64,000 bases of DNA from Eledone cirrhosa (Eukaryota), in assembly GCA_964016885.1 (NCBI GenBank), contig OZ024743.1, positions 116,622,001 through 116,686,000 of the forward strand. Direction: 5' to 3'. Positions 3,056 to 58,133 of this stretch are shown here, one piece after another. Below the pieces are notes generated by a model. The model was not told where the DNA came from and searched no databases. It was given only the letters and a program-made list of their open reading frames with translations. A program made the translations under genes and the position numbers. Position 1 is the stretch's first letter, and each line of letters opens with the position of its first letter.

Positions 3056-4478
3056 CCTTGAATCTCAGTCATTGATGTTGGTTAACTGTAAAGTCCGTTG
3101 GAATGAATATCAAGCCACTACCTGCAGCCTCAGATATTCAGGACGTATCGGAGGGTTCTTGCTGTTCCCAGCAAGCATGCCTTTTGAAGCGTTCCAAAAA
3201 GCGTGAAGGGGCCGATTTTCTTTAACCATCCCTGGAAACTTTTGGTTTAACCATCCCTGGAAACTTTTGGAGATAGTCCCCAGTGCGCCTATGACAATCG
3301 GGATCACTTTGACTTCATGGCAGTTCCAAATCCTTTTCACCTCCCACTTTAGGTCCTGGTATTGGTTAATTTTCTCCCTCTCCTTCTCTTGCACTCTCGT
3401 GTCGAACGGGCAGGCCACATCCACAATCAGACACGATCTTTTTTCTTTGTCCACAACCACCAGGTCAGGTCTATTGCGTTCCAGTTTTTTGTCCGTCTGT
3501 ATCCTAAAATCCCACAGCACCTTCACCTGATTGTCCTCCATCACCGCCTCTGGCCTTTGCTCATACCATTTCTCAGAATGTGGTAAATTGTTTACTTTGC
3601 ACAGCTGCCAGTGGATCACCCTGCCCATCACATCGTGTCTCCAGCCCTTATAGTGGCTCTGGGCTAGGTGTTTACACTCGGACACAATGTGAGCCACAGT
3701 CTCCTCTCTCTCTCCACAGATCCTGCACAGTGGGCTAGCCTCCTCCTTGTAAATATGGTGCTTCAACCACTTCGTTTTGAGGGCCTGCTCCTGCGCAGCC
3801 ATTAGCATTCCTTCTGTAGCCTTTTTGAGGTCTCCTCTTCTCAACCAGTTCCATGTCTGTGGATCTCTAAATTCAGTTTTCTCAAAGAAGGTACTATGAA
3901 GGGATTTTCCCTTAAGGCTGCTCTTCCTCCTTTATGTTATTTCCTCCTTGGACATCCCCTGGCCTACTGTCCCCTCCTTCAGTACAGTTCTGAGCATTGG
4001 CTCCTTACTATAGGTCACGTATTTGTATAGGTTGTTTTTCTCCATCTGAACACAGTCCTCTATGCTGATAAGACCTCTTCCACCCTCAGATCTCCTTAGG
4101 TAGAGTCTATCGACATCACTCCTCTTGTGGAACATGTTGTAGATAGTCAATAGCTTCCTAGTCTTCCTATCCATTTCTTTTTGTTCAGCAACATTCCATC
4201 TCAGAATTCCCGCACTGTACCTAATAATAGACACAGCTCGGGAATTTACTGCGCTTATGGCATTTCTGCTGTTCAGATGTGACTTCAATAGGCTCCTAAC
4301 TCTCCGAATGTATTCAGTTCTTAACAATTCCTTCATTTTTTTGTTCTTTATGCCATCAGCCTCCAGAACGCCCAAATACTTGTATCCTTCCTCAGAGTCA
4401 ATTTCCTTTATCATCTCACCTGTTGGTATCTGGATCCCGTTACTTCTGCTCAACCTACCCCTCCTCATCACAATGGGG
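3056..4478 (-). mobile_element. R4/Dong-like retrotransposon, 5'-truncated (RT C-terminus, CCHC knuckle, RLE)
   Basis: YKYLGVLE, RLYLRRSEGGRGL, AAQEQAL, CRIC..EETVAHIVSEC, RHD, NRPDLVVVD, IVDVACPFD, IPIVIGALG in ORFs 3932-4726 and 3110-3844; (TAA)n at both ends. Confidence 0.92.
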
Positions 4479-4511
4479 ATTATTATTATTATTATTAATC
4501 TGGGCCTGGTG

Positions 4512-4562
<51 letters not shown>

Positions 4563-4576
4563 TTATATATATATAC

Positions 4577-5182
4577 TTGGTTAATCCAGGTTGGGGAAAA
4601 CTTATCAGTACTCCACCACCATGCCAAAATAGAACATAGGGGCACATTATATAACATAGAGATAAAACTTATATCCAGACACAGAAAGGATGTAATGCTC
4701 AGACAAATCACAGAGACGACAAACATAAATAAACTCTAACCAAAATTAAACAGAAAACATGAGTGGAATAGCAATATACCAACAAGTAACTAAGGTCAAA
4801 ATGAAGACATAAAGACACACAAAAAAAAACAAAAAAAAAACACATCACACACACACACACACACATATAAAGTAAACAACCAACTAGTGACACGTAAATA
4901 AACACATACATAAATAAACACACACACACATGGATGTAACGCATGTGCACACTAAACACAAAAACAAGATGGTATAGAACAGAGAAAAGGAGAGACAAAA
5001 ATAAATACCTAGTCACTGAGACGGTCGCAGAATATGTAACGAAAGAGCTTTGACAATATATAAACAACAATCCGGTTATCGAACCAACCAACCAACAAAC
5101 CAACCAGAAATTGATAATAAATTGAAGTAAAAACTAATACGTGTGTGTTTTTTATTGGCAGCATGACCCTCCCAAAATATAA
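4577..5182 (+). mobile_element. Non-coding PLE pseudo-LTR-like element with degenerate hammerhead (~5012-5054)
   Basis: 4940-5182 resembles 17575-17868; gtca-ctgagacg-gtcgcagaatatgtaac-gaaa-gagc-tt-tgac. Confidence 0.6.
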
Positions 5183-12562: not shown

Positions 12563-12621
<59 letters not shown>

Positions 12622-13044
12622 AGGTATGGACATAGAATAATGAATGCAAATGCAAAAGATATTGTTGACAATTAGTCTTTTACCTTAGATTTATTTAAAT
12701 GTCCTTAATTTTCGAGATAATATCTCTTCTTCGGAGGGAAGTAAAGCGGTTAAACCAGTGTTCTAAATAGCTTGCCAAGTCATGCTGACAGTAAATGGTA
12801 TAGAGTATCTGTTTATGTTTAATGTCAAAGAGTTAGGTTAGGTGGATAACGAGTAGTCTCCCTTTAAAAGGTTTTTTTTTGTACATGCCTGTTTAAGTGT
12901 GTGGTAGAATGCATGAAGGTGTAAGTATGTGAGTGTGTGTGTGTGAGTGTGAGAAGATATGTCTATACGTAAATGTGGGGGATACATGTTATCTCGTGTT
13001 AGAACTGGTCGTTGTGTGTGTGAGAAAGAATAAGTGGAGGTGTA

Positions 13045-13081
<37 letters not shown>

Positions 13082-13150
13082 CGTGTGTGTGTGAGTGTGT
13101 GTGTGCGTGTGTGTGATGTGGCTGGGTGTAAATATGAGGCAGAAGCTCTA

Positions 13151-13630
13151 TCAAGTTATGAATTGGGTGTTGAGTTCTAGTCTATTATTGATTGGTGGTT
13201 GTGTTTTGTCTATAATTAGTGCTTCCTTAATTCTAAGATTGCCGAGGTTTCTTTCCTTAGTTTCTATCCTAACTGTTATAGTTGTGTCGGTGTTTTTGCA
13301 TTTAACTAGGTGTTTCTTAAATGAGGAAGCGTTAGTATTGAGGTGTTCTTTTATTCTTATGTGGAGTGGTCTGGTGGGGCTACCTACGTAGAAGTTGCTG
13401 CATTTGTCACACTCTAGTCTGTATACGACGTAAGCCTGGTGGCATAGGTCTGTGTTGTTGATGGGGCAGTTGGCTAGCCTGCAGCAGTTGTCATGTCTGG
13501 TGGAGTGTCTTTTGCTTAGCAGTCCGCGTAGAGAAGGACCTGAGTGGGCCAGTTGGATATCCAGTCCCTCTCGTCTGATAGCTCTGCGGATGGCTGTTGT
13601 TGTTTCGTCACTGAAGTGTGGGAGCTTCAA
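13151..13630 (-). pseudogene. Inverted duplicate of the PLE GIY-YIG endonuclease domain
   Basis: C.LANCP....LC, VVYRLECDKCSNFYVGS.TRPLHIRIKEH, RIKEALII....PPINNRLE. Confidence 0.88.
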
Positions 13631-13668
13631 GAAGCAAGTATTAGTGCCTCGATTGTGGTGTCCTCTGT

Positions 13669-16075
13669 CCTACCAACATGCTTCAGATCACCAGGCCTCA
13701 AACGATCACTTAGTTACATACAAAAATTCTGCCTAAGAAATCACATACAACACCTACACTGCACGCTACAACAACACATACGAACTATTTCCAGCCTTGT
13801 ACCACAACTCGCCGAAACACCAGAACCTCTGTCCAGAGTTATCTCCGCGGCTATAGACAGGTCATACCACCATCGCCGAGACTACGAGAAAATACGCCTA
13901 ACGCAAACATTTCTCAAACTCAGCACGTCTAACCGTCTTAATGACATCCTAAATCTAAGCACTAACAGAAGCGAACAAGACGGTCCCAACACCGAATCTA
14001 GCGGCGCCCCGACCAACAACACACCTGACGCAAAACACCTCGTCACAGACTTGACAGGATCCCTCTCCCGAGAGGAATTATACCTCCTCAGCCTGGGTCC
14101 CAAGTTCATATTGAAACAGAGACTGGACGACAAAATATGGCTCGACATAGAAATGAATTTCTGTCGGGTTGTCTACCAACTAAGATGGATATCGACTCTC
14201 GGCAACAACCCCACAGAATCTAACAAACCCAGATTCCCGATATACCAACTGGATCACCCACTCTGTCCACCGCCTGCCAACCGCGAGCTTGAAGAAAAAC
14301 TCTCGAGGCTAAAACATTCCGTATTTAACATCTTACGGAAACAGAAGAAGATAGCCCCAAACCTCTCCAGGACACAACAACTCGTCCTGAAGAACCTACG
14401 GATTAGGGAACTTATATACTTACCATCCGACAAAGGCAAAGAGTTTTGCGTCATATCTCAAGCCACATACAACAACCTAGCCTTTGAACACCTAAGCGAC
14501 AATGAATTATATACAGAGATCCCGGACATGACTGCAGCCCATATCGAAAAACAGACCAACTCCATCTGGTTCGATATCTGTAGGAGAAGACAACTCCCAA
14601 ATAACGTTAAGCTCAACTACACCACTAGAAATAGCAGACTGCCCAATTTCTACCACCTCATCAAGACCCACAAGAATAGTAATAAGACGCAAATAAGACC
14701 CATTGACTCTAGCATAGAAGGACCCCTATACAAAATTTCCTGGCTCCTCTCCCAGGTCCTCAAGCCTCTACTCTCCACCTTTCCCGGGCATGTCAGTAGC
14801 TCCGACGAAGTTATACGTAGACTAAACCAACTCCAGCCAGAACAACTTAAACTAAATAGATACGCCTTTAGCCTCGACGTTGTCTCCCTCTACACTACAG
14901 TCCCCGCTCATCCAGCTGTCATTTATTTACGGACTGCGTTGTCGCAGAGGACATCCGCTGCTACGACCTCCATCCGACGGACATACACCAGCTTTTGTCC
15001 TTCACAGTAGACAACACATACTTCACCTTCCCCCACCACACATACAGACAGACACCAGGATTACCCATGGGATCCAGCCTATCGGGCCTGCTGGCCATCA
15101 CCTATATGAGCCAGCTAGAATGCCGTGCCCTCAACACCTGCCATTCCCATACCTTCTTCACCCGATATGTAGATGACATACTCATCCTCACATCATCCCT
15201 TGAGGAGGCAGATAAACTATACACAACATTCTCCAGCATGGACGCCAGTATAAAGTTCAGCATAGAATACCCCGATGACCGCGGATCCTTATCCCTACTG
15301 GACTTCCAACTCAGGGTAACAGAGGAAGGCAACATCCACACCTTCTTCTATAAAAAAGCCGCCAGCAGGGACATGTTCGTACGTTTCAGATCGACCCTCC
15401 CAGCCGGCGCTAAGTTCGGATACATAAGGAACAAACTGACACGTATCCGGAACAAATGCACCGACGTTAGAGACCGAGACACACACACCACACATTTCCT
15501 GGAAGTACTCAAAGTGAAAGGATACCCGCACATCCACCACAAACCGTGCCAGAAAGAACAGAGGACACCACACCCGAGGCACTAACACTTGCTTCCTGAA
15601 GCTCCCACACTTCAGTGACGAAACAACAACAGCCATCCGCAGATCTATCAGACGAGAGGGACTAGATATCCAACTGGCCCACTCAGGTGCTTCTCTACGC
15701 GGACAGCTAGCCAAAAGACACTCCACCAGATATGACAACTGCTGCTGGCTAGCCAACTGCCCCATCAACGTAACAGACCTATGCCACCAGGCTTACGTTG
15801 TATACAGACTAGAGTGTGACAAATGCAGCAACTTCTACGTAGGTAGCACCACCAGACCATTCCACATAAGAATAAAAGAACACCTCAATACGAACGCTTC
15901 CTCATTTAAGAAACACCTAGTTAAATGCAAAAACACTGACACAACCATAACAGTTAGGATAGAAACTAAGGAAAGAAACCTCGGCAATCTTAGAATTAAG
16001 GAAGCACTAAATATAGACAAAACGCGAACCACCAATCAATAATAGACTAGAACTCAACACCCAATTCATAACTTG
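13669..16075 (+). pseudogene. PLE RT plus GIY-YIG polyprotein, 5'-truncated, at least two frameshifts
   Basis: LSLGPKF, PSDKG, FYHLIKTHK, IRPI, SLDVVSLYTTVP, YRQ..GLPMGSSLS, RYVDD, LLD, GYP; endonuclease at ~15790-16075. Confidence 0.9.
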
Positions 16076-16184
16076 ATAGAGCTTCTAGCCCTATATTTAC
16101 ACACACACCGCACACAAACACACACACACACACACACCACACCACACACACACACACACACGCGCGCGCGCACACACACGCACG

Positions 16185-16221
<37 letters not shown>

Positions 16222-16533
16222 ACACCTCCACTTATTCTCTCTGTCACACACACAAAGACCAGTTCTAACACGAGATAACATGTATCCCCCACATTTACTT
16301 ATAGGTATATATTCTCACACTCACACGCACACACTCACATACTTACACCTTCATGCACTCTCTCACACACTTAAACAGGCATGTACAAAAACAAAACCAT
16401 TTTAAAGGGAGACTACTCTTTATCCACCTAAACTTAACTCTTTGACATTAGAGATAGAACAGATAATCTATACCATTTCCTGTCAGCATGACTTGGCAAG
16501 CTATTTAGAACTCTGGTTTAACCGCTTTACTTC

Positions 16534-16568
16534 CCTCTGAAGAAGAGATATAATCTCAAATATTAAGG
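16534..16568 (+). ncRNA. Degenerate hammerhead in the PLE pseudo-LTR (mirror copy ~12703-12737, minus)
   Basis: cct-CTGAAGA-aGAGAT-ata-ATCTC-(g)AAA-tattaagg; the mirror copy retains GAAA but has CCGAAGA. Confidence 0.6.
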
Positions 16569-16729
16569 ACATTTAAATAAATCTAAGGTAAAAGACTAAT
16601 TGTCAACAATATCTTTTGCATTTGCATTCTTTATATTATGTCCATACCTGCATTGTTTTGGCTTTATTATACATATACAAACGTTTATACCTCATTACAC
16701 AATGCTTCAAGTGAACTATAACCTCCTCC

Positions 16730-20348: not shown

Positions 20349-20573
20349 GTATGGTGAACTAACTGTTGTGAAACCATTTCTCTCTCTCTCACTCTCTCTC
20401 TATATATATATATATTTATATATTCTGAGTATATGTACGTTGTTTACCGACACCTTAGTGTGCAGAATGGAGCACTCGACGAAGTACGCAGGTTGGTTTG
20501 GTTACTCCGGAGTAATTTAAAATAAAGTAATTAAGTCAAATGTTTAAAATTTGGCTTCATTTATTAAAGATGT

Positions 20574-20628
20574 ACTGCTATATATATTTCGGTGACAGCC
20601 ATCATTGGCTGTGACCTCTTCAGGCAGT
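20574..20628 (-). ncRNA. Type I hammerhead motif, intact core
   Basis: ACTGC-CTGAAGA-GGTcACAGCCA-atga-TGGCTGTcACC-GAAA-TATATA-TA-GCAGT. Confidence 0.9.
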
Positions 20629-22012
20629 CCGAATTGGTGTGGGAGAGACAGGTACACATGTTGTTAAAGTGTTTTACTCCGTCAATACTCCGATATGTCC
20701 AGCACCTGGTTGGGTTGTTATTTCTCTGAGGAACTCGAATCATATGAATTCGAACAAACGAATTTCGGCATCATAGGACACTCTCTCCTCCCATTGGTCA
20801 GTTGTGAGAACATTCCTCAGTCAAAAGTCTATAGAATTTTTTTTCTGAGGCAAGACAATCTGTTGTGGTTGTTTTTGTTAAGTACAGCTGACCTCCTCCC
20901 TTGTGTTTATTGTCGTTAGGGGGTTAGCTGGCAGGTCAACCTTAGATCTACTACTGCTGTCTTTAGAATAATGAGTGTATGTAGGTTGGCATCAATCGTA
21001 CCAACCTTTCACGTGGTGGGGGGTGCCAAACAGATAATGAAATAAGATAAAGTAAAATGAAGAAATAAAATATTAAAAAAATAAAATAAAATAAAAAAAT
21101 AATAAAATAATAAAATAAGATACAATAAAATGAAGACATAAAATATAAATAAATAAATAAAATAGAATAAAATGCGTGTTTGTTATAGCCAATATCATTT
21201 ATCAAAGAAGAATTAAGTTCATGTGTGTTATAGCCAATATTAAAGTTTGAAAGTTTTGGAAAATATTGACTGAAGTATAAAGGCTGTGTCAGAACCGGGA
21301 AATGCAAAGGATTACGATCTTTACACTATCATGGGGTGGTGCGTTTTAAGAGCAAATGAGGCAAGTGGGGAATGTAAAACACCATAACCTGAGTGTCAAA
21401 ATCCGGAAATGCAGAGGACCACAGTTTTTAATTCGGCATAGAGTACATATGCGTGTATGTCAACCCACATCGTTGCAAGCCCACACGCACAAAGATGGGC
21501 CCAGGTGCATCCCATAATCACACACACCCACACACACACAGACAATACAAACACACACACACACACACATATATGTATATATATACACGCGCACACACAC
21601 GCAGGCACACACACACTGTTTGGCACCCCCATAGGGTGGTAGGATTGATGCCAACCCACATACACTCATTATTCTAAAGACAGCAGCAGAGGAACTAAGG
21701 CTGACCTGCCAGCTGAACCCTTAACGAAAATAAACACAAGGGAGGAGGTCAGCTGTACTTAACAAAAACAACCACAACAGATTGTCTTGCCTCAGGAAAA
21801 GAAATTCTATAGACTTTTGACTGAGGAATGTTCTCACAACTGACCAATGGGAGGAGAGAGTGTCTTATGATGCCGAAATTCGTTTGTTCGAATTCATATG
21901 ATTCGAGTTCCTCAGAGAAATAACAACCCAACCATGAGCTGGACATATCGGAGTATTGACGGAGTAAAACACTTTAACAACATGTGTACCTGTCTCTACC
22001 ACACTAATTCAG

Positions 22013-22067
22013 ACTGCCTGAAGAGGTCACAGCTACTGATGACTGTCACCGAAATATATATAGCAGT
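22013..22067 (+). ncRNA. Type I hammerhead motif, intact core (mirror copy)
   Basis: ACTGC-CTGAAGA-GGTcACAG...CTGTcACC-GAAA-TATATA-TA-GCAGT. Confidence 0.9.
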
Positions 22068-22191
22068 ACATCTTTAATAAATGAAGCCAAATTTTAAATA
22101 TTTGACTTAATTACTTTATTTTATATATTTATTTTATATATTTATTTTATATATATATAGAGAGAAATTGCTTCTACAAGATTACTAGAAT

Positions 22192-22536
22192 TGTTTCAGT
22201 AACACTATGTACATTTCATTGGCCACGTTATGTAGGATCGTGGTGACATCATTGGGTGTATATTGCATCATAGTTAAAGGGATAATGGTAAACACATCCA
22301 AGCGCCTGTAAGGAGGGAAAGCAGATACAAAAAGAAAAACAGAGAAAAAGTTCGTGACTCGAAGTCGATGAAGCGGGCCAGTTTTTGTCACTTTGGCTGA
22401 CCGACTCCGAGCCTCTTGGATTCTGTTTACCATTGTTCCTTTATTATATAATTATTATGCAATATACAACCTGATGATGTCACCAGGATCTTATGTAACC
22501 TGGACACTGAAATGTACATATTGTTTGCTGAAATAA
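22192..22536. mobile_element. Inverted-repeat element, ~115 bp arms with hammerheads
   Basis: Arms ~22192-22305 and ~22412-22536; a further small inverted repeat spans ~22533-22672. Confidence 0.8.
22467..22523 (+). ncRNA. Type I hammerhead motif
   Basis: CTGATGA-TGTC..CAGG...CCTG-GACAct-GAAA-TGTACA-TA; the left arm keeps stem I ACAC/GTGT. Confidence 0.7.
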
Positions 22537-22682
22537 ATCTTTGAATTTCACCAGTCCGCCCTCCTATAATATTTTTGTTATTCAATTATATATTTTTACT
22601 CAATTATATATATATATATTATTGAGTAAAATGAATGGAGACCAGACTAGTGAAAATATTTCAAAGATTATATATATATATA

Positions 22683-41128: not shown

Positions 41129-41926
41129 CTTAGGTATTTATATATGTATACATATACTTATATAAATACCTACGTATATACATATATATATACATATAAT
41201 TCGGGCATACAATGTTCTATGTTGAGAACGGATATAGACAACAACGTTCCATGGATTCTTAACTCTTGTAGAGTCGTACGGACACCATAATTGCATATGG
41301 CGTGTCCTTGGCATTTAACCCTGGTGAAGCCCATGATATGTCTTTTGGAATACAATCGGTTTCTTCTAGAAAATATCGACATAGAAAGAGAAAAAAAGTA
41401 TAATATTGATATGGAGGAAGAATCAACCCCAGTATTGAACTAGTGCAATATTTAAACACCGCCAAAACAATGAATAGCAAAGTTGATCTAGTGAGGATTT
41501 GAACTCCATATTAGGAGAACTGGAGCAAATATCGCAAAACATTCTCCGACCGACTCTGCTACTTCGCTGTTTTATAACAATCTTAACATGTATAAACCCG
41601 TAGCACGTGGTTGACTTCATAGGGGGTCCTCGGTTATAGAACAGCTTTTCTTGTGCATTTTCAACCTAGGAGCCATTCTACCTCGGTTTGCCAGTGTTAA
41701 ACAAACGGATGACGAGTTGTCATCGACACTGTAGAGCTTTAATCCGGTCATTTTTTTTTACGAACGAATCAAATGTTATTGTTAATGTTTGATATATCCC
41801 ATACGTACATATGTATATGCATATATGTGTGCGTCTATATTTATATATGTATGTGTGTTTATACATATATATATATATATGTGTGTCTGTACGTATGCAT
41901 ACTTACACACACACACACAAACACAT

Positions 41927-42169: not shown

Positions 42170-44575
42170 TACAAAGTGTTTAAAACCGTTAAAACATGTT
42201 TATATAATTGTGCCCCTACGTACGTTTCGCCCTGAGCGGATTTATCAATGGCATGGAAAGCAAAATAATGTTCAATATAGGACCCAGGAGGGAATTTACG
42301 GTTAAATTAACATCATCATTCATTTTCCTCTCTGTGCATGTGTTTTTATTATCACAGAGCAGGGTGAGTAACTCTGGCCGGTGTTCAAGCAATCAGTCCC
42401 ATGTGGATTTTAAAGCCTGTTCATATGCTGGTGTTTAGCATCTTTATGTTATGTGTGTTGTTTCACTGGTACAAGTAGAGGTCGTGTCTGGTGTGTCCAT
42501 TTATTATTTAGTGGATGTTGCTTCACTAATGTTTGTTCGAGTATGGTCTGCGGTTTACATTTGGTTCACAGATGTTTGTTCATATTGCGTGCCCACCGGG
42601 GTGTTATGGTTCGGGCAGGAGGACCCAGTTCGTAGTTTTCATGTCACAGTCGCCTCCCAGGCAAAATACGACGCCTGTACCCGGTGTTTACAATTAATAA
42701 CTGATTCTGCTCTGCTGTTTAAGAGCTCATGGGGTGTTCTTATGATGTAGTACAGCTCCATGGGGTAGAGCTGGCATTTCCCACTGAAGTTGTAGGGTGC
42801 AGCCATTCTGACAATATCCCGGTGTGTGGAGAAGCTTATGTTGGCGTCTTGCAATGTGGTGACTTAGTAGGCAAACGATGTGGAGTGCCTTAATTTTTTG
42901 TTCCTGAAAGAGAGGAGATGCGTCTTAAATCTCGTTTTAAACTGGCCAGAGGTGGCTCCTATATAGTGTTTAACTCCGCTATGGCTAGTTACGGTGTACC
43001 TATAAACAACCTTATCAGTCAGGCAGTTTCCCCTGAGAAGGCAGCCTTCCCTGTCACAACAGTTGCATTTTCCGTCACGGTCGCTCCCAGTTCCTAAATT
43101 AAAGTTATTACTACTGCTATCTATGTTGTTATCTATGTCTCTAACTCCGTCAATGGTACTGTTATCTCTCGATGCGTGCGGTGTTGTACGATTATTATTC
43201 TTCACGCCTTAGCCCGTTCTGCTGCCGGTGGATGACGCGTGTGGGTCGCCGGTATATTCTCCAATCACACCCTAGTTACGTGGGTTTCGTCTGCCGGGGC
43301 GCCATCCACCCTATTTGGTGCTGTTAGGGGGATGTTAAAGTTATTAGTGTTGTTGTCATGGCTAGATGTATCTGTACTAAGGTGTAGTGTTTTGTTAATC
43401 TTACTGTGATTAGTTGCTCCAATGATGTCAGCTAGATTGGAGGTGGAAGAGAAGGATATTTTGATATTGTTCCTGTTATGTATTTTTCTGTATTTATGAT
43501 TAGGTGGGAAATCCTCTCCAAGGCTTCGAAGAATATCCTCGGTACGTCGGACGCCACACTCCGAGAATAGGTGGGGGGCATATGATATTACGGTGGCGTT
43601 TCCGCTTTACAGTTGGTTTGCCACAGGTTGTGATTCCTATTTCACAATACTTACGGTTGTTCCTGTGCTGTAGCCGGTTATTCGTCCCCATTACTTTATG
43701 TTCAGGTGGGGGCGCATTACCTCTGTACTTTCTATGTGCGGCTGGACGCGGGTTGGAGGGTGTTGGTAATAGGCCGCCGCAGTTGCTGGTCTTATAGTTA
43801 GGTAATAACTCTAATAGGATGCAGCGGGTAGCGTTACCAATCGGGTAACACTTACCATACTGTCGATTGTCTTGGTCGCCACTCATGTGTGGTCAAGTTT
43901 CTTAGGGTGGTTAGATGCATAGTTTATATAGGACAGGATCTCACCGGGCTTATGGTATGGCTTGTATAGGCCGGTACTCAACTCCAGGGTTACATCTAGG
44001 AAATGGACTATTTGGTGCTTGAGGTCTTAAAGAAACTGTGTATGCGGTTGTTAAGGTTCTCTATCCTGCGGGGTCTGTGGCTTCGCACGGTAAACAGGGC
44101 ATCGTCCCTATATACCCCGCCCTGTAGGGCCGGTATCTCGTCCCTAATTCTATGGAGAAGGTATATCCCGACCAGGTTGGTTACTTGCGCTGAGTCGCTG
44201 GACTCCATCGTGATATCAAAGTTATCAGGACGGTTGGCTCTGGTCCAGTAGGAGCCATCAAACTTGATAATAGTTCTACGCGCTGCGAGCACAATATCTA
44301 TCGCTTTCCTAGTAAGGCTAGTATTGGACTTAGCTAGAATAAGCGCTTTAATTAGGAGTATGGGGGAGATCGATGCATAGTAGCCATCTATGTCAAACTG
44401 TATGAACTTAAGAGTTGTTTTATCAGGTAACTCCGTGAACCAATTAATGACCTGGTCGGTGCTGCTCCAGAGACAGACCTTGGCTTTATTATTAAGTTCT
44501 AGTAGTACTCTATCTAGGATCACTTTACTAATTTTACCTATATCCGAAGTAGATGGTCATATAAGTTTAATAGAG
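42170..44575 (-). mobile_element. Naiad-type PLE copy 1, 5'-truncated and disrupted
   Basis: FIQFDIDGYYASIS, FDITMESSDSAQ, GGVYRDDAL, CNC....C.L.GNCL..VVYR..V..HYIGATSGQFKTRF..H..SF. Confidence 0.88.
42211..42253 (-). ncRNA. Degenerate hammerhead in the Naiad 3' pLTR
   Basis: tgcca-TTGATAA-atccgctcagggc-GAAA-CGTACG-TA-ggggca. Confidence 0.62.
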
Positions 44576-44940
44576 GGGTTTTCATGACAGTTACATTTGT
44601 TATCCTTAAGAGAGAATCTAGGTGTCATAGGGACATATGGGTATATATATATGTATGCATATATATATATATATATATGCATACATACATAAGTATATGT
44701 GTATGCATCTTGTATTACATATATAGATACAAATTCATATATATAAGTATGTATAATTACATACATATATGTATAAAAACATACAGTAGTATGTATATAA
44801 ATACATACATGCACACATATATATATATGTACGTATGAGTTTACCGAACATTTATTATAATGTTCGGTTTGTTTGTAAACAGGTATCAGCCGTACTAAGA
44901 GTGAGAAATGAAATTTCATTTTTTCCAATTCATATAAATT

Positions 44941-45528: not shown

Positions 45529-45581
<53 letters not shown>

Positions 45582-46450
45582 CACATATATACATATACAT
45601 ATGTACGTATGAGATATATCGAACATTAATAATAGCATTCGATTAATTTTCTCTGCAGTGCCGATGACAACTCGTCATCCGTTTGTTTAACACTGGCAAA
45701 CCGAGGTACAATGGGCTCCACTAGGTTCAAAATGCACAAGAAAAGCTGTTCTATAACCTAGGAGCCCCTACTAAGTCAACCACGTGCTACGGGTTTATAC
45801 ATGTTAAGATTGTTATAAAATAGCGAAGTAGCAGAGTCGTTCGGAGATTGTTTTGCGATATTTGCTCCAGTTCTCCTAATATGGAGTTCAAATCCTCACT
45901 AGATCAACTTTGCTATTCATTGTTTTGGCGGTGTTTAAATACTACACTAGTTCAATACTGGGGTTGATTCTTCCTCCATATCAATATTATACTTTTTTTC
46001 TCGTTCTATGTCGATATTTTCTAGAAGAAACCGATTGTATTCCAAAAGACATATCATGGGCTTCACCAGGGCTAAATGCCAAGGACACGCCATATGCAAT
46101 TATGGTCTCCGTACGACTCTACAAGAGTTAAGAATCAATGGAACGTTGTTGTCTATATCCGTTCTCAACATAGAACATTGTATGTCCGAATTATATTTGT
46201 TGAAGCGGTTGTTGTTTAAATCCAGATATCACTGCTCGGCCATTATTAAAACACCTCAAATTAATATGTTATCCACTTCAAAATTTATCACACCATATAA
46301 TTGAATATAATTAACTTTTCATAAAAACAGTTCCATACGGTTATTCGATTGATGGATCTATATTTAAATTTTAACAAACCTCATCAATTATTGTTAAGAA
46401 TGACAAACGACGAATTTGCTTTACACTTTTTTTTTTTAATATTTCATACA

Positions 46451-51053: not shown

Positions 51054-54000
51054 ATATATTAATACATGGAAACTATATTTATAAAACCATAATTATTTTA
51101 TTATATATATTTCAAGGGCAACCAAGGCAGCCTTGGTGCGCTTTCATCAGATAAAATACAAAATTTGTTTGATAAATAGTGACATAACCGTGGAAAACAA
51201 CCTTGACGGTTGAAAATTCGCTAGATAGTGAAAAATGTTATTGAGGGTAATTCAAATTTCTGTGTGAATATGCAAATGAATGTCTGAAAAATTGAAAAAA
51301 ACAACCGTTTATTTAAATTACGCTGTAGGAAAAAGAGAGAGAAAAAAGAGAGAAAAAGAAAAGAAAAGTAAATATTAGTATATGTAGAAGTAGAGTGAAG
51401 TGAAGAAAGAGCGAAGAAAGAAGCTTATCCAAGGATGAGTTCATATAATGTAAATAAGTTTTTATGCTATGTATATTTACTAATACTTTTTAGAATTCTA
51501 TTATAATAAATATCTATTTACTATTATAAGTATATAGAAAATGATATATATAGAAAAAATAAAGATATATTAAAAATAAAGATATATTAAAAATAAAGAT
51601 ATGTCAAAATATATTAAGATATATTAAAATATATCCAAATATATTAAAATATAATAAAAATAGATTTAAATACATATGAAGTAGAAGCGTAGGATAAAAT
51701 GTAGATATAAGGATAGATATAAGGATAGATATATGTGTGGAAAGATGGGTATATCATGTTATAAATTATGAGGGATACTAGTTCATATTTAGTGTCAGTA
51801 TTTAAATTAAATTAAATTAACTATATGCTATGGAAAAATATTGAAAATCACAGTTTTGTTTATTTATTAGTTATTATGAGATAATTTTGACAAAGATATG
51901 TTTAAAGATATATTTAGCCAGAGTTAATTATTTAATTATTGGTTATAACTGTATTATTAAATAATTACAAAAAATAAAAAAAATAAATAAATAAATTAAA
52001 ATTATAAGAAAATACTAAAACCATTTAAAAATTAAAACTATAAAATATAAACAATTCTAGACAAAATTCTTGAAAATTCCTGGAAAAACTTTCCAAGAGA
52101 TTTTTAAAAGATCTCAAAAAGACTCCGAAGATACTCAAAAGCCTTTAAAAACATTTAAAAAGTGTTTTAAATGATTCTGGAAATATAATTAAAAACCTAA
52201 AATTATTAAAAAATATAAAGAAATATTAAGAAATATTTAAAAATACTTTTAAATATTTTAAAATACTTTGAAATATTAGAAAAATACTAAAAAATATATT
52301 AAAAATATTAAGATGACCAAAAAAATATTTTTTGGGGAAATAAATAATTTTTTAAAAGATTTTAAGTAATTTTTCTAAAATGATTATGAGATATATTGGA
52401 AGTAAGATAAATAAAGATAAAAAATAAAGATATTTAAGAAGTAAAAATATAAAAAGTAAAGATTTAAGAAGTAAATTATATATAATTAAGAACTAAAAGA
52501 TTTAGAATTTAGAATTACATTAGAATTAGAATTTATGAACATATATGCATATAATTTAAGAAATGAGATTGTAGGTCTTTGTATAAAGTAAACATTATGT
52601 AGAGAAGATTAAACGTGTAATTATATTTTATATATAGATCTAAAAGTTGAGTTTTGGCGATGTTTACAAGAACTAAATAAATTGTTACGTAAATTAATGG
52701 AGTTCTTACATTTAAGTATGAAGAAAATTTCTTCAATACACAAGTTGCAAAATTTGGATAAAGCTGTGTTATTATAAGCAGGTGCTTAGAAATTATATTC
52801 CAAGATAAAGAATAGTGTCTATTTTTGGATTTTAAGTTCCATATCAAGTTGGATAGAGAAGTTGAAGATTTTTTACCAATATTATGAAACGAGGATTTAT
52901 GGTTATTGAAACGAGATTTAAAGTCTGTAGAAGTTGAGCCAACATAGTTAAAAATATTATCATTGGTTTTGACATTGCATTTATAGACCACATTTTTAAC
53001 TAAACAGTTATTTTTTAAAGGACAGTTAGATTTAATTCTACAATTACATTTATCAGAGTTTATATTATTTGGAACAGTATTATTATATTGGATATTGCTA
53101 GAGGTATTAGTGCTATTCTGGTTAAGGTTTAGATTTCTATTATTGATTCTATTTATATTTTGTGCTATCTTCATAGTAGTAGAGTAAGATAGTTTAATTG
53201 TATGTCTGTTAAAGATTGAATAATATATAAGGCCTTGGGAAAACATTTATCAAGAGCTTTAAAAAATCGTTTAGCTAAAGGTGTTTTAATTCTTAGTGAA
53301 AATGGAGGAGCATACAAGATTATGTTTCTAGTTCTATTTCTTCTGTTAGTTTTAGAGTTTATGCTAGGTTTCTTATTATAATTATAATTAATATTATGGT
53401 TAATATTATGGTTAATTGCCTTATCATTATTGTCGATGTATTTAATTTCATTATTATAGCCTGCTCTACTTAAAGCTTCGTTATAATATTGTGCCTTATC
53501 TTCAATTATATTTTTCATTCGCTGAGATTCAAGAAATACATTCTTGTACAGAATTTACGATAGTGTTCTTAACGGATCTAGGATGATTAGCGTTGAAGCT
53601 AACATAGTTTAAGTTCTCATTAATTTTATGGAATGGATAGTATATCCCAGTATCAAGGTTTAATGTTACTTCTAAAAAGTTAACAATTTTGATAATTATT
53701 CTCTATTTCTAACTTAAAATTATAGCTATTAAAAAATTGTATTATTGGTTTTCTTTTTCTATTGATTTCACAATTATTATTATTTTCAATTAACAGCAGC
53801 ATATCATCACGATATAAACCACCGGTCATCTCCAGTAGTTTTCTATGTAATGTATTGTTAATAAAAAGCCCCACAAGATCTGTTATTTGCGCCGAGTTTG
53901 ATTACCCCATAGTGATATCGAAATTATTATCTCTATCTGCTCTGGTCCAAAGATGGTTGTTGAATTTAATTAAGGTTTTCCGTGCAGTTAAAATGATATG

Positions 54001-54342
54001 CATTTTATCACTAGATAAATCAGTATATTTAGATGCGTAGATAACGGCTTTATTAAGTAAATAAGGAGTGATAGATGAGTAGTAATTTGCAATATCCAAT
54101 TGAATGAATTTTTTGTTATGCTTACATTTTATGTTATTGAACCAATCTATAACTTCATTAGTACCGTTCCATAGTTTTAAGTAAGATATATCTTTAAGTT
54201 GCGGAATGATTCTATCTAATATATGTTTACTAACTATGCCTAAGACTGATTTAGATGGTGCTATAAGTCTAACTGTTAAATCTATTTCAAAGTTTCTTTT
54301 GTGGTCTTTCAAATTAATTTTTAATAATGATATTTCGTGCAA
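51051..54342 (-). mobile_element. Naiad-type PLE copy 2 (AT-rich family) with ~1.4 kb 3' non-coding region
   Basis: LKDHKRNF..VRLIAPSKS.LG.VSK.ILD, FIQLDIANYYSSI, FDITMG, GGLYRDD, APPFS, CNCR..NCPL...CL..NVVYKC.V..YVGST..FKSRFNNHKSSF. Confidence 0.92.
51095..51157 (-). ncRNA. Type I hammerhead motif, intact core
   Basis: ATTTTAT-CTGATGA-AAGcGCACCAAGG-ctg-CCTTGGTtGCcCTT-GAAA-TATATA-TA-ATAAAAT, ~45 nt from the terminal (TA)n. Confidence 0.9.
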
Positions 54343-55850: not shown

Positions 55851-58133
55851 ACGTGGAAACATAAGAAATATGGTTGCAGACCATTACAACATGTTTATTT
55901 AAAACAGCAGCTACGTACGTTTTGCCAGGATGGCTTTTTAAGGGCATAAATAATTAAAAAGTATTCCTTACATGGCCCGGAAAGTTCTTTTGGAGAAAAG
56001 TTCACGTCAGAGATCATTCTTCGCAAAATAACGTGTTTTGATTTTGCAATAGGTCAAGGGACCTAACTCTGGCCGGTGTTAGGGCAATCTTTCCCGGACA
56101 AATTTGTTATCCGTTACAAGATGTGGTTACAACCTTACCATTGTCGATATGCACAGGGACAGGTATGCAACGTTTGTTTTGAGACGTTTGTTTACTGTAC
56201 CTGTCCGCCTGGGTCATTTGAAGCCGGGTCTGGGATGCATGGTCAGTTTCCGGATGTTTTTTGCAGCGCCTGCTCGCCGGAGTGTTAAAGCTTGTCACAG
56301 GGAGACACGGTATAAGGTTTCACTCCTCGTCTTTATCCCATCTGAAGAAGGATATTTTTAAGCGATGTGTACAGCTCATCGTCGTTTCAGCTCTGCTGTT
56401 GATGAGCTCGTAGGGTGCCGTTAGGATGTGGTAGAGCTCCATGAGGCAAAGATCGCACTTCCTCTTGAATTTGTACGGTGCAGCCCTGCCAACAATTTCC
56501 CAGTGCGTGGAGAAGCTGATGTTTAAGTCTTTTAATGATGTGATGTAGTCCGCAAGCGAAGTGGAGTGTCTTAATTTCTTATTTGTGAAAGAGTGGAGAT
56601 GTTTTCGAAATCTAATTCTGAACGGGCCAGAGGTAGCCCCTATATAATGTTTAACGCTATTGTGGCTAGTTACAGTGCACCTATATATAACCCTATCAGT
56701 CAAGCAGTATCCTCTAATGCGGCAGCGTTCCCTGTCGCGGCAGTTGCAATTTCGGTCGCGGTCCCTTCTAATTCCCATGGTCAGGCTCTCACTTTTGCTA
56801 TCTACGTTGTTACCTACGCTCCCACACCTGTCGTTAGCACCATTATAACCCACTGTGCGCGGGGTGGTACCATTATTATTCCGCACGTCATGTCCTGCAT
56901 ATTCCCCAGTCATTTCGCGGTTATGCTGGTTGCGTCCGTAGAGGTTGTTGCCAGCACTATTGGATGCTGCTAGGAAGTCGTTAAGGCTGATATAGTTATT
57001 GTCAGGTGTAGGTGCTTCTGTGCTAGGGTGATTTGTCTTGGTGATCTTATTGTGATTAGTTTTTCCTATGATGTCTGCTAGGTTAGGAGTAGTAGAGAAG
57101 GATATTTTTATATTGTTCCTATTAAGGATTTTTCTATACCTCTGGTTGGGTGGGAAGTTCTTCTCTAAGGCTTCGAAGAATATCCGCGGTATTTTGGAGG
57201 CCACACTCCGGGAGTAGGGGTGATGGAACCATAGGACGTTACGGTGGCGATTACGTGTCCTTGTACGTTTGCTACAGGTAGTGCCATCAGGGTGACCGTT
57301 AATGCGCTGTAGCCCGTTACGTGCCCTTTCACTTTATGCTCGGGTGCACTCTTCTTCCTTCTGCTATGTTTATGTACAGGAAGATGTTGGTTGAAAGGCG
57401 TTGGTAGTAGGCCGTCGCCTTAGTTGATTTTATAGTAGAGGAATAATTCGACAAGGCTACAGTGGTCATTGTCACCGGGTTCGTGATCTTTATTGTGTGG
57501 TAAGTTACCTATACAATCGCCAGTATAATTAACGTTGTGGTCGTGTTCCTTAGTGCGATTATCTATACTATTACATCCGACTCCTTCGACGACCCCGTGT
57601 GATCGGTTATAGGTATGGCTTACTATAACGCTCGTCTCATGAGGGGGGAGGGGTACTGGAGCTAGCGTTAGGGATGTAGGAAATTCCTCGGTTAAAGCCG
57701 GCGCTTATCAAGTCCCTATTGTAGTAGTCTGCCGCTTGGTTGAAGATATCCTCATTGGCGGAGAGCCTCGAGATCCTATGCGAGATGCTATAGACTATAG
57801 AGTTGAGTCTGCTTAGAGTGGTTGAAGGCATAATTATTATAAGAAAGGCTCTCTCCAGGCTTATTGTATGGCTTGTATAGGCATATACAAGGGTCACATC
57901 CAGGGTCAACTCCAGGGTCACATCCAGGGAGTTGACAATCTGGTGGTTGAGGTCTATAGTTTCGGATAGGCCGTATGACTTGAAGAACCTGTATATATGC
58001 TTGTTAAGGTTCTCTATCCTACGAGAGCTATGGTTGCTAACAGTAAACAGGGCATCGTCCTTGAGAAGCCCATCCGGGCGAAACTTAAGTAGGTGCTGTT
58101 TTAAATAATCATGTTGTAACGGTCTGCTCTCAT
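55851..58133 (-). mobile_element. Naiad-type PLE copy 3 with short inverted 5' pLTR (58061-58133)
   Basis: Open GIY-YIG region 56320-57204 (CNCR..RVIYRC..HYIGAT..CDLCLMEL..LINSRAE...C.H); RT truncated at RDDAL; 58061-58133 is the reverse complement of ~55851-55940. Confidence 0.9.
58061..58096 (+). ncRNA. Partial hammerhead in the inverted pLTR
   Basis: ttgagaa-GCCC-atcc-GGGC-GAAA-CTTAAG-TA-ggtgc. Confidence 0.6.

Follow-up and report, generated by a model that had tools for sequence, protein, structure and literature searches.

Insertions of Penelope-like elements (PLEs) typically comprise inverted 5'-truncated copies with one-sided tails of 30-40 bp, according to Craig et al. (2021, PMC8557442). 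The Hydra clade, as characterized in that paper, is marked by RWK, DKT, CxCX5C, CxxC, and CxH motifs, insertion into (TA)n, and a hammerhead. It includes the 2507-bp Hydra-1_Obim of Octopus bimaculoides, and its elements are described as "generally <3 kb", a general observation that is not diagnostic. The hammerheads of metazoan PLEs were characterized by Cervera and de la Pena (2014, PMC4209133), who describe minimal type I motifs with a palindromic stem III, a short stem I, and a long stem II. These motifs include opposite-strand pairs ~100-700 bp apart, with single motifs tied to truncated PLEs, and a single minimal PLE hammerhead of S. mansoni gave no detectable cleavage (PMC4209133). In vitro work on an anole PLE traced the tail to a pair of internal RT start sites and showed that insertion there proceeds without cleavage by the ribozyme (PMC11167929). 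Retrozymes, which are described as derived from PLEs, are arranged in tandem, and every unit of the array has its ribozyme on the same strand (bioRxiv 10.64898/2026.07.22.740005). Inverted 3' pieces that lack the tail, and ribozymes paired on opposite strands, have therefore both been reported before.

Here we analyse an ORF-less inverted repeat with two hammerhead motifs within a window of 64,000 nucleotides from the genome of Eledone cirrhosa. Like the inverted pLTRs and tails described for PLEs (PMC8557442; PMC11167929), the locus consists of a 5'-truncated copy and an adjacent inverted copy with a tail at one end, although the tail is ~95 nt long rather than the published 30-40 bp. Its hammerheads resemble those of metazoan PLEs in stem layout and opposite-strand pairing, but the two motifs are ~1.4 kb apart rather than ~100-700 bp, and their stem III is an 8-nt AU palindrome, unlike the motifs presented in PMC4209133. 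The locus shares with non-LTR retrozymes the absence of an ORF, the type I hammerhead, and the relationship to PLEs. However, retrozymes form head-to-tail arrays with same-strand ribozymes, whereas the locus is a single inverted pair. We conclude with high confidence that the locus derives from a protein-coding PLE with Hydra-clade motifs, truncated at the 5' side so that only 1.2 kb of a ~1.5-kb 3' UTR is left, followed by an inverted tail-less duplicate of the 3' end, and that it is likely a single dead insertion.

Architecture of the locus

The two inverted arms, at 20515-21033 and 21616-22126, are 93.3% identical over 520 aligned columns. A preliminary description of this DNA had reported arms of ~510 bp, each with a hammerhead core and a 5-bp stem I, and had noted that the left arm extends ~95 bp further to the microsatellite; the arm comparison reproduces both observations, with the extension running to ~20420-20425 and into (TA)n. 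The sequence between the arms had been taken for a spacer. Instead, this interval (21034-21615, minus strand), in which A-rich and (CA)n tracts occur, is the interior of the 3' UTR. Among the best-scoring genome matches to this segment, all 40 scored candidates match at 92-100%, and in most copies at the first 30 loci the left arm runs unbroken into it. Because the left arm and the "spacer" are continuous elsewhere, the locus is one 1.2-kb minus-strand copy with a 0.5-kb inverted duplicate of its end.

The direct copy occupies 20420-21616 on the minus strand and contains 3' UTR only. It was delimited by its match to L032, a near full-length copy, aligning to L032 positions 3222-3785 (91%) and 3973-4606 (94.5%), so that it begins at position 3222, ~300 nt downstream of the stop codon at position 2925. 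The arm comparison places its ~95-nt 3' tail, missing from the inverted piece, at 20420-20514 (minus strand). The inverted piece (21616-22126, plus strand) is a tail-less duplicate of the element 3' end, that is, an inverted pLTR piece, and corresponds to L032 positions 3978-4496. The inversion junction lies at 21616-21617, within the (CA)n tract and with one shared base. A 5' truncation, an adjacent inverted copy, and a tail at one end are together the hallmarks of a PLE insertion.

The left flank is a (CT)n(AT)n microsatellite (20378-20421) that is likely the target. In the right flank (22127-22169), the sequence and TRF reveal two more copies of the terminal 13-mer, followed by (TA)n(GA)n. 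TRF reports a period 13 repeat at 22091-22158, and the 13-mer in which the inverted piece ends occurs three times at 22115-22153; shorter stutters are seen at the tail-less ends of L015 and L079. Stuttered 13-mer ends possibly result from repeated priming. Most other copies are also terminated by (TA)n or (CA)n. The flanks have in common a short inverted (TA)n-AGAGAGAAAT motif, and no target-site duplication is readable in these microsatellites.

It is extremely unlikely that the inverted piece arose later, by inverted duplication of an ordinary truncated copy through DNA repair or an assembly error. The position of the junction in a (CA)n tract and the inverted motif common to both flanks would fit such an event, but an assembly echo is ruled out by the 7% difference between the arms, and inverted pieces at 10 other loci stop at this fixed point too, which points to the transposition reaction itself. 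Identity between the arms (93.3%) does not exceed that between either arm and other copies (medians of 93.6% and 92.1%), the pattern expected from old neutral decay.

The earlier observation that arms and "spacer" hold no RT or endonuclease remnant stands: a tblastn search of the window with the protein of an intact relative gave no match at E<=10 in 20425-22123. This absence follows from the truncation point, which lies inside the ~1.5-kb 3' UTR and short of the stop codon. Rfam gave no match within the window at gathering thresholds. Short ORFs in 20425-22123 were discarded as chance or microsatellite frames.

The parent family and its copies

The preliminary description had called for a copy-number check by genome search and for a comparison with PLE proteins. 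With 20425-21030 (606 nt) as the query, the genome search gave 3654 candidates, which are not copy numbers, and the best 40 were scored; all of these are 90-100% identical over most of the query. In this and the other searches, the scored 40 are the top-scoring copies out of several thousand candidates and do not represent a census. Copies extending past 21616 have further sequence in common, with first an endonuclease-like and then an RT-like frame encoded in it. At least 13 of the 39 other scored copies reach 5' to or beyond the stop codon, into an ORF with RT and endonuclease-like regions; this count is a lower bound because the chaining of copies breaks at (CA)n tracts. The proposed link to PLEs is borne out by these longer copies.

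The near full-length copy at L032:4869-9474 (4606 nt) contains an inverted piece, a partial tandem pLTR, a broken ORF, and a long UTR. A 248-nt copy of the 3' end lies directly upstream of the ORF, which identifies the tandem pLTR. From this copy, the element body is ~4.4 kb and the 3' UTR ~1.4-1.5 kb. At L032:7731-7932 the UTR starts with tandem repeats of ~100 nt, each a duplicate of the ORF end, and their number varies between copies. None of the loci examined contains a full, unbroken ORF from the subfamily to which the window copy belongs.

The 3' ends of the family fall at two points. Among 60 3' ends in 62 loci, a few of which overlap, 47 are tailed and 13 are tail-less, and all 13 tail-less ends lie within a base of one point 95 nt earlier. 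The ~95-nt extension of the left arm is the PLE tail that is absent from the inverted piece, as had been suggested. An inverted piece with its outer end at 4489-4496 is present in 11 of the 40 rows, the window's included, and the inner ends vary. A single insertion accounts for both L022 and L023, which are its two ends.

The locus had been put forward as the best candidate for a true non-autonomous family, which would be a ~1.7-kb MITE-like or SINE-like unit with inverted ribozyme arms, copied in trans by a PLE protein. Such a unit could explain why the interval is without an ORF and has both cores intact, and why 26 of the 39 other scored copies were not followed as far as the ORF; the protein could come from the intact ORFs of a younger sister subfamily. 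However, when copies are extended 5' they reveal the adjoining RT and endonuclease ORF, and the sequence of the locus is simply the 3' UTR of coding copies. Further, an exact search found the junction 23-mer once in the 3.0-Gb genome, and among the best 40 of 1438 candidates a 431-nt query across the junction was spanned only by the window copy, with the others matching one side. The exact 23-mer would miss diverged copies of the junction, which the BLAST test should place first. Nor do the 40 scored copies have a 5' end in common: their 5' ends lie anywhere between 1 and 4039, and 3222 has no close neighbour among them, 3144 and 3330 being the nearest. Inverted pieces likewise have inner ends spread between 2892 and 4319. 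Some 5' ends are nearly paired (2969/2970, 3635/3636, 3677/3678, and 3709/3712), and a 177-nt foreign insert in the L032 reference artificially produces three 5' ends at 3973. No copies with a common ORF-less structure and 5' end were found among the best 40 scored candidates; a separate ORF-less subfamily with a different 5' end may exist among the lower-scoring ones. The unique junction and scattered 5' ends therefore give no sign of a non-autonomous family, a reading that the sequence comparisons largely refute and that we consider very unlikely.

Hammerhead ribozymes

In both arms, a 5-bp stem I accompanies the type I hammerhead core CUGAAGA...GAAA-UAUAUAUA. Core matching and folding define the left motif (20574-20628, minus strand) as a minimal type I hammerhead whose stem III is an 8-nt palindrome and whose cleavage is predicted between 20579 and 20578. 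This 55-mer folds as a hammerhead at -17.6 kcal/mol (z = -3.05 vs shuffles), and its sequence is identical to the commonest version in the family. The right motif (22013-22067, plus strand) has an intact core, but a C-A mismatch and a G-U pair make its stem II weaker in folding. Its folding energy is -9.8 kcal/mol, with a stem II pair probability of ~0.6 or less, and in an 86-nt context the hammerhead shape is not adopted in folding. The long stem II ascribed to both arms is therefore not borne out in the right arm. Judged by sequence and folding, both motifs are type I hammerheads in their core, stems I and II, and UH cleavage site, the right one with a weakened stem II. The core test was passed by 60 of 76 motif copies examined, and since an intact core is the rule, two intact cores at the locus need no selection.

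Stem III, an 8-nt AU palindrome, is of the dimer-dependent form. The locus had been named the best candidate for biochemical testing, by a cleavage assay of the left 55-mer, but with only this palindromic stem III, and given the non-cleaving minimal hammerhead reported for S. mansoni (PMC4209133), the 55-mer is a poor choice for the assay as proposed.

The two ribozymes face opposite ways on opposite strands, so that no single RNA carries two sense ribozymes. In a fold of the whole 1.7-kb locus, 52-53 of 55 ribozyme bases are paired to the opposite arm, and the prediction places both ribozymes inside a hairpin of ~490 bp. This orientation and burial make a retrozyme-like cycle unlikely. Two type I hammerheads within 1.5 kb, together with the description of retrozymes as PLE-derived (bioRxiv 10.64898/2026.07.22.740005), might suggest a non-LTR retrozyme that forms a circular RNA through cuts at both hammerheads. 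Yet retrozyme units, as described there, carry same-strand ribozymes, the hairpin is predicted to enclose the one sense ribozyme that a read-through RNA would have, and no tandem unit is present at the locus, leaving this explanation with almost no probability.

Encoded protein and clade assignment

From 150 scored matches to an RT query of the genome, 20 loci were taken, 16 for their long open frames and 4 because UTR of the window type or RT lies close by. Two of the 20, L063 (891 aa) and L064, contain ORFs that are complete from the start codon, and several others have near-complete ones. The intact ORFs, at L063:2919-5597 and L064:4382-7060 (G000 C2 and C28), belong to a younger sister subfamily that has near-identical copies and was likely active recently. 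Across the ORF and the terminal 400 nt, this subfamily and L032 have 83-84% identity.

A structure model of the sister-subfamily protein, built on 25 sequences, has a pLDDT of 77. Its best fold match is telomerase TERT (E 8e-9), and a YRDD motif is present. The longer copies, and not the window, thus contain a single ORF with an RT that the model indicates is telomerase-like. For a putative C-terminal GIY-YIG endonuclease, the motif pattern is conserved with 24 relatives and Atlas neighbours carry PF01541; Pfam gave no direct match, and the fold matches listed are of RT type only. Pfam searches of ORF fragments and of two long ORFs gave no RT or GIY-YIG matches, RVT_1 is recognized in 1 of 25 relatives, and PDB sequence searches gave nothing meaningful. 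The 42 database relatives are mostly unnamed, with one informatively named, from Argonauta hians.

Protein P0001 has the Hydra motifs RWK at 37 and DKT at 120, and across the aligned proteins RW[KR] is present in 22 of 25 and DK[TS] in 25 of 25. It also has CNCRNPESC at 752 (the CxCX5C linker), CKLC at 850 (CxxC), and CRH at 878 (CxH), around conserved E and N residues. Between RT and endonuclease, residues 478-611 and 691-742 form ~180 aa of predicted-disordered inserts that are absent from most of the 24 relatives.

We tentatively place the family in the Hydra clade by these motifs, (TA)n insertion, and the canonical hammerhead, which the C-terminal-EN PLEs of this clade share along with a single RT-EN ORF (PMC8557442). 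In contrast to the short size given for the clade (<3 kb; 2507 bp for Hydra-1_Obim), the family body is ~4.4 kb, and the 3' UTR of ~1.4-1.5 kb and the 891-aa ORF with ~180 aa of disordered inserts also set it apart. Compared by eye, Hydra-1_Obim appears to be a different family. No description of the family was found in the literature searched, with Repbase and Dfam outside that search, and the family may be undescribed. The Octopus vulgaris repeat library may contain related families (PMC13282606). No biochemistry of the Hydra clade was found in the PLE literature examined.

Proposed mechanism of insertion

A model of the insertion can be based on what is observed, namely the family and its ORF, the truncation point, the unique junction, the microsatellite flanks, and 3' ends fixed at two points ~95 nt from each other. 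By analogy with the anole PLE (PMC11167929), the RT-endonuclease of the family would have cut the AT-rich microsatellite, and the element RNA would have been reverse-transcribed from two start sites within it. On one DNA end, priming was likely at the distal site and gave the tailed copy, of which 1.2 kb was made; on the other, it was likely at the proximal site and gave the tail-less copy, of which 0.5 kb was made. The two unfinished cDNAs would then have been joined at their 5' ends, through one shared base in the (CA)n tract, to leave outward-pointing arms. The ribozymes of the locus would be passengers inherited from the parent pLTR. In the parent they may be weak cutters that depend on dimers or protein, and at the locus they are predicted to be sequestered.

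Our picture of the parent is tentative, with the balance slightly against it in full: an undescribed Hydra-type PLE with two fixed RT start sites 95 nt apart (~3x the published tail), a 1.4-1.5-kb 3' UTR, an 891-aa protein with long disordered inserts, and inverted insertions built by two-site priming. If such a two-site family exists, its intact young copies make the building of inverted insertions directly testable in vitro. As one decayed insertion among many, the locus itself is of little weight, and its intact sister copies are the material for study of the tail and the origin of inverted pLTRs. The locus also serves as a caution, as PLE families with long 3' UTRs give kilobase-long, ORF-less, double-ribozyme inverted repeats by plain truncation, mimicking non-autonomous families.

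Other related sequences in the window

Further related PLE ORF remnants, 31-57% identical to P0001, are present in the window at 42684-44631, 52630-54321, and 56341-58071, all on the minus strand, the first of them within an inverted pair at 41194-41878 and 45533-46196. A larger inverted pair, with 1.1-kb arms of 91% identity, lies at 12615-13671 and 15555-16656. A relaxed pattern scan of the window for hammerhead-like cores identified 12296+, 17557-, 22471+, 22786-, 51150-, 55301+, 58413+, 61538+, 62413-, and 63127+. Some of these are within small inverted pairs, and those at 51150 and 62413 pass the stem I test too. The core at 22471 belongs to a small, older inverted pair (78%) that adjoins the locus at 22187-22294 and 22424-22540 and is probably another PLE relic.
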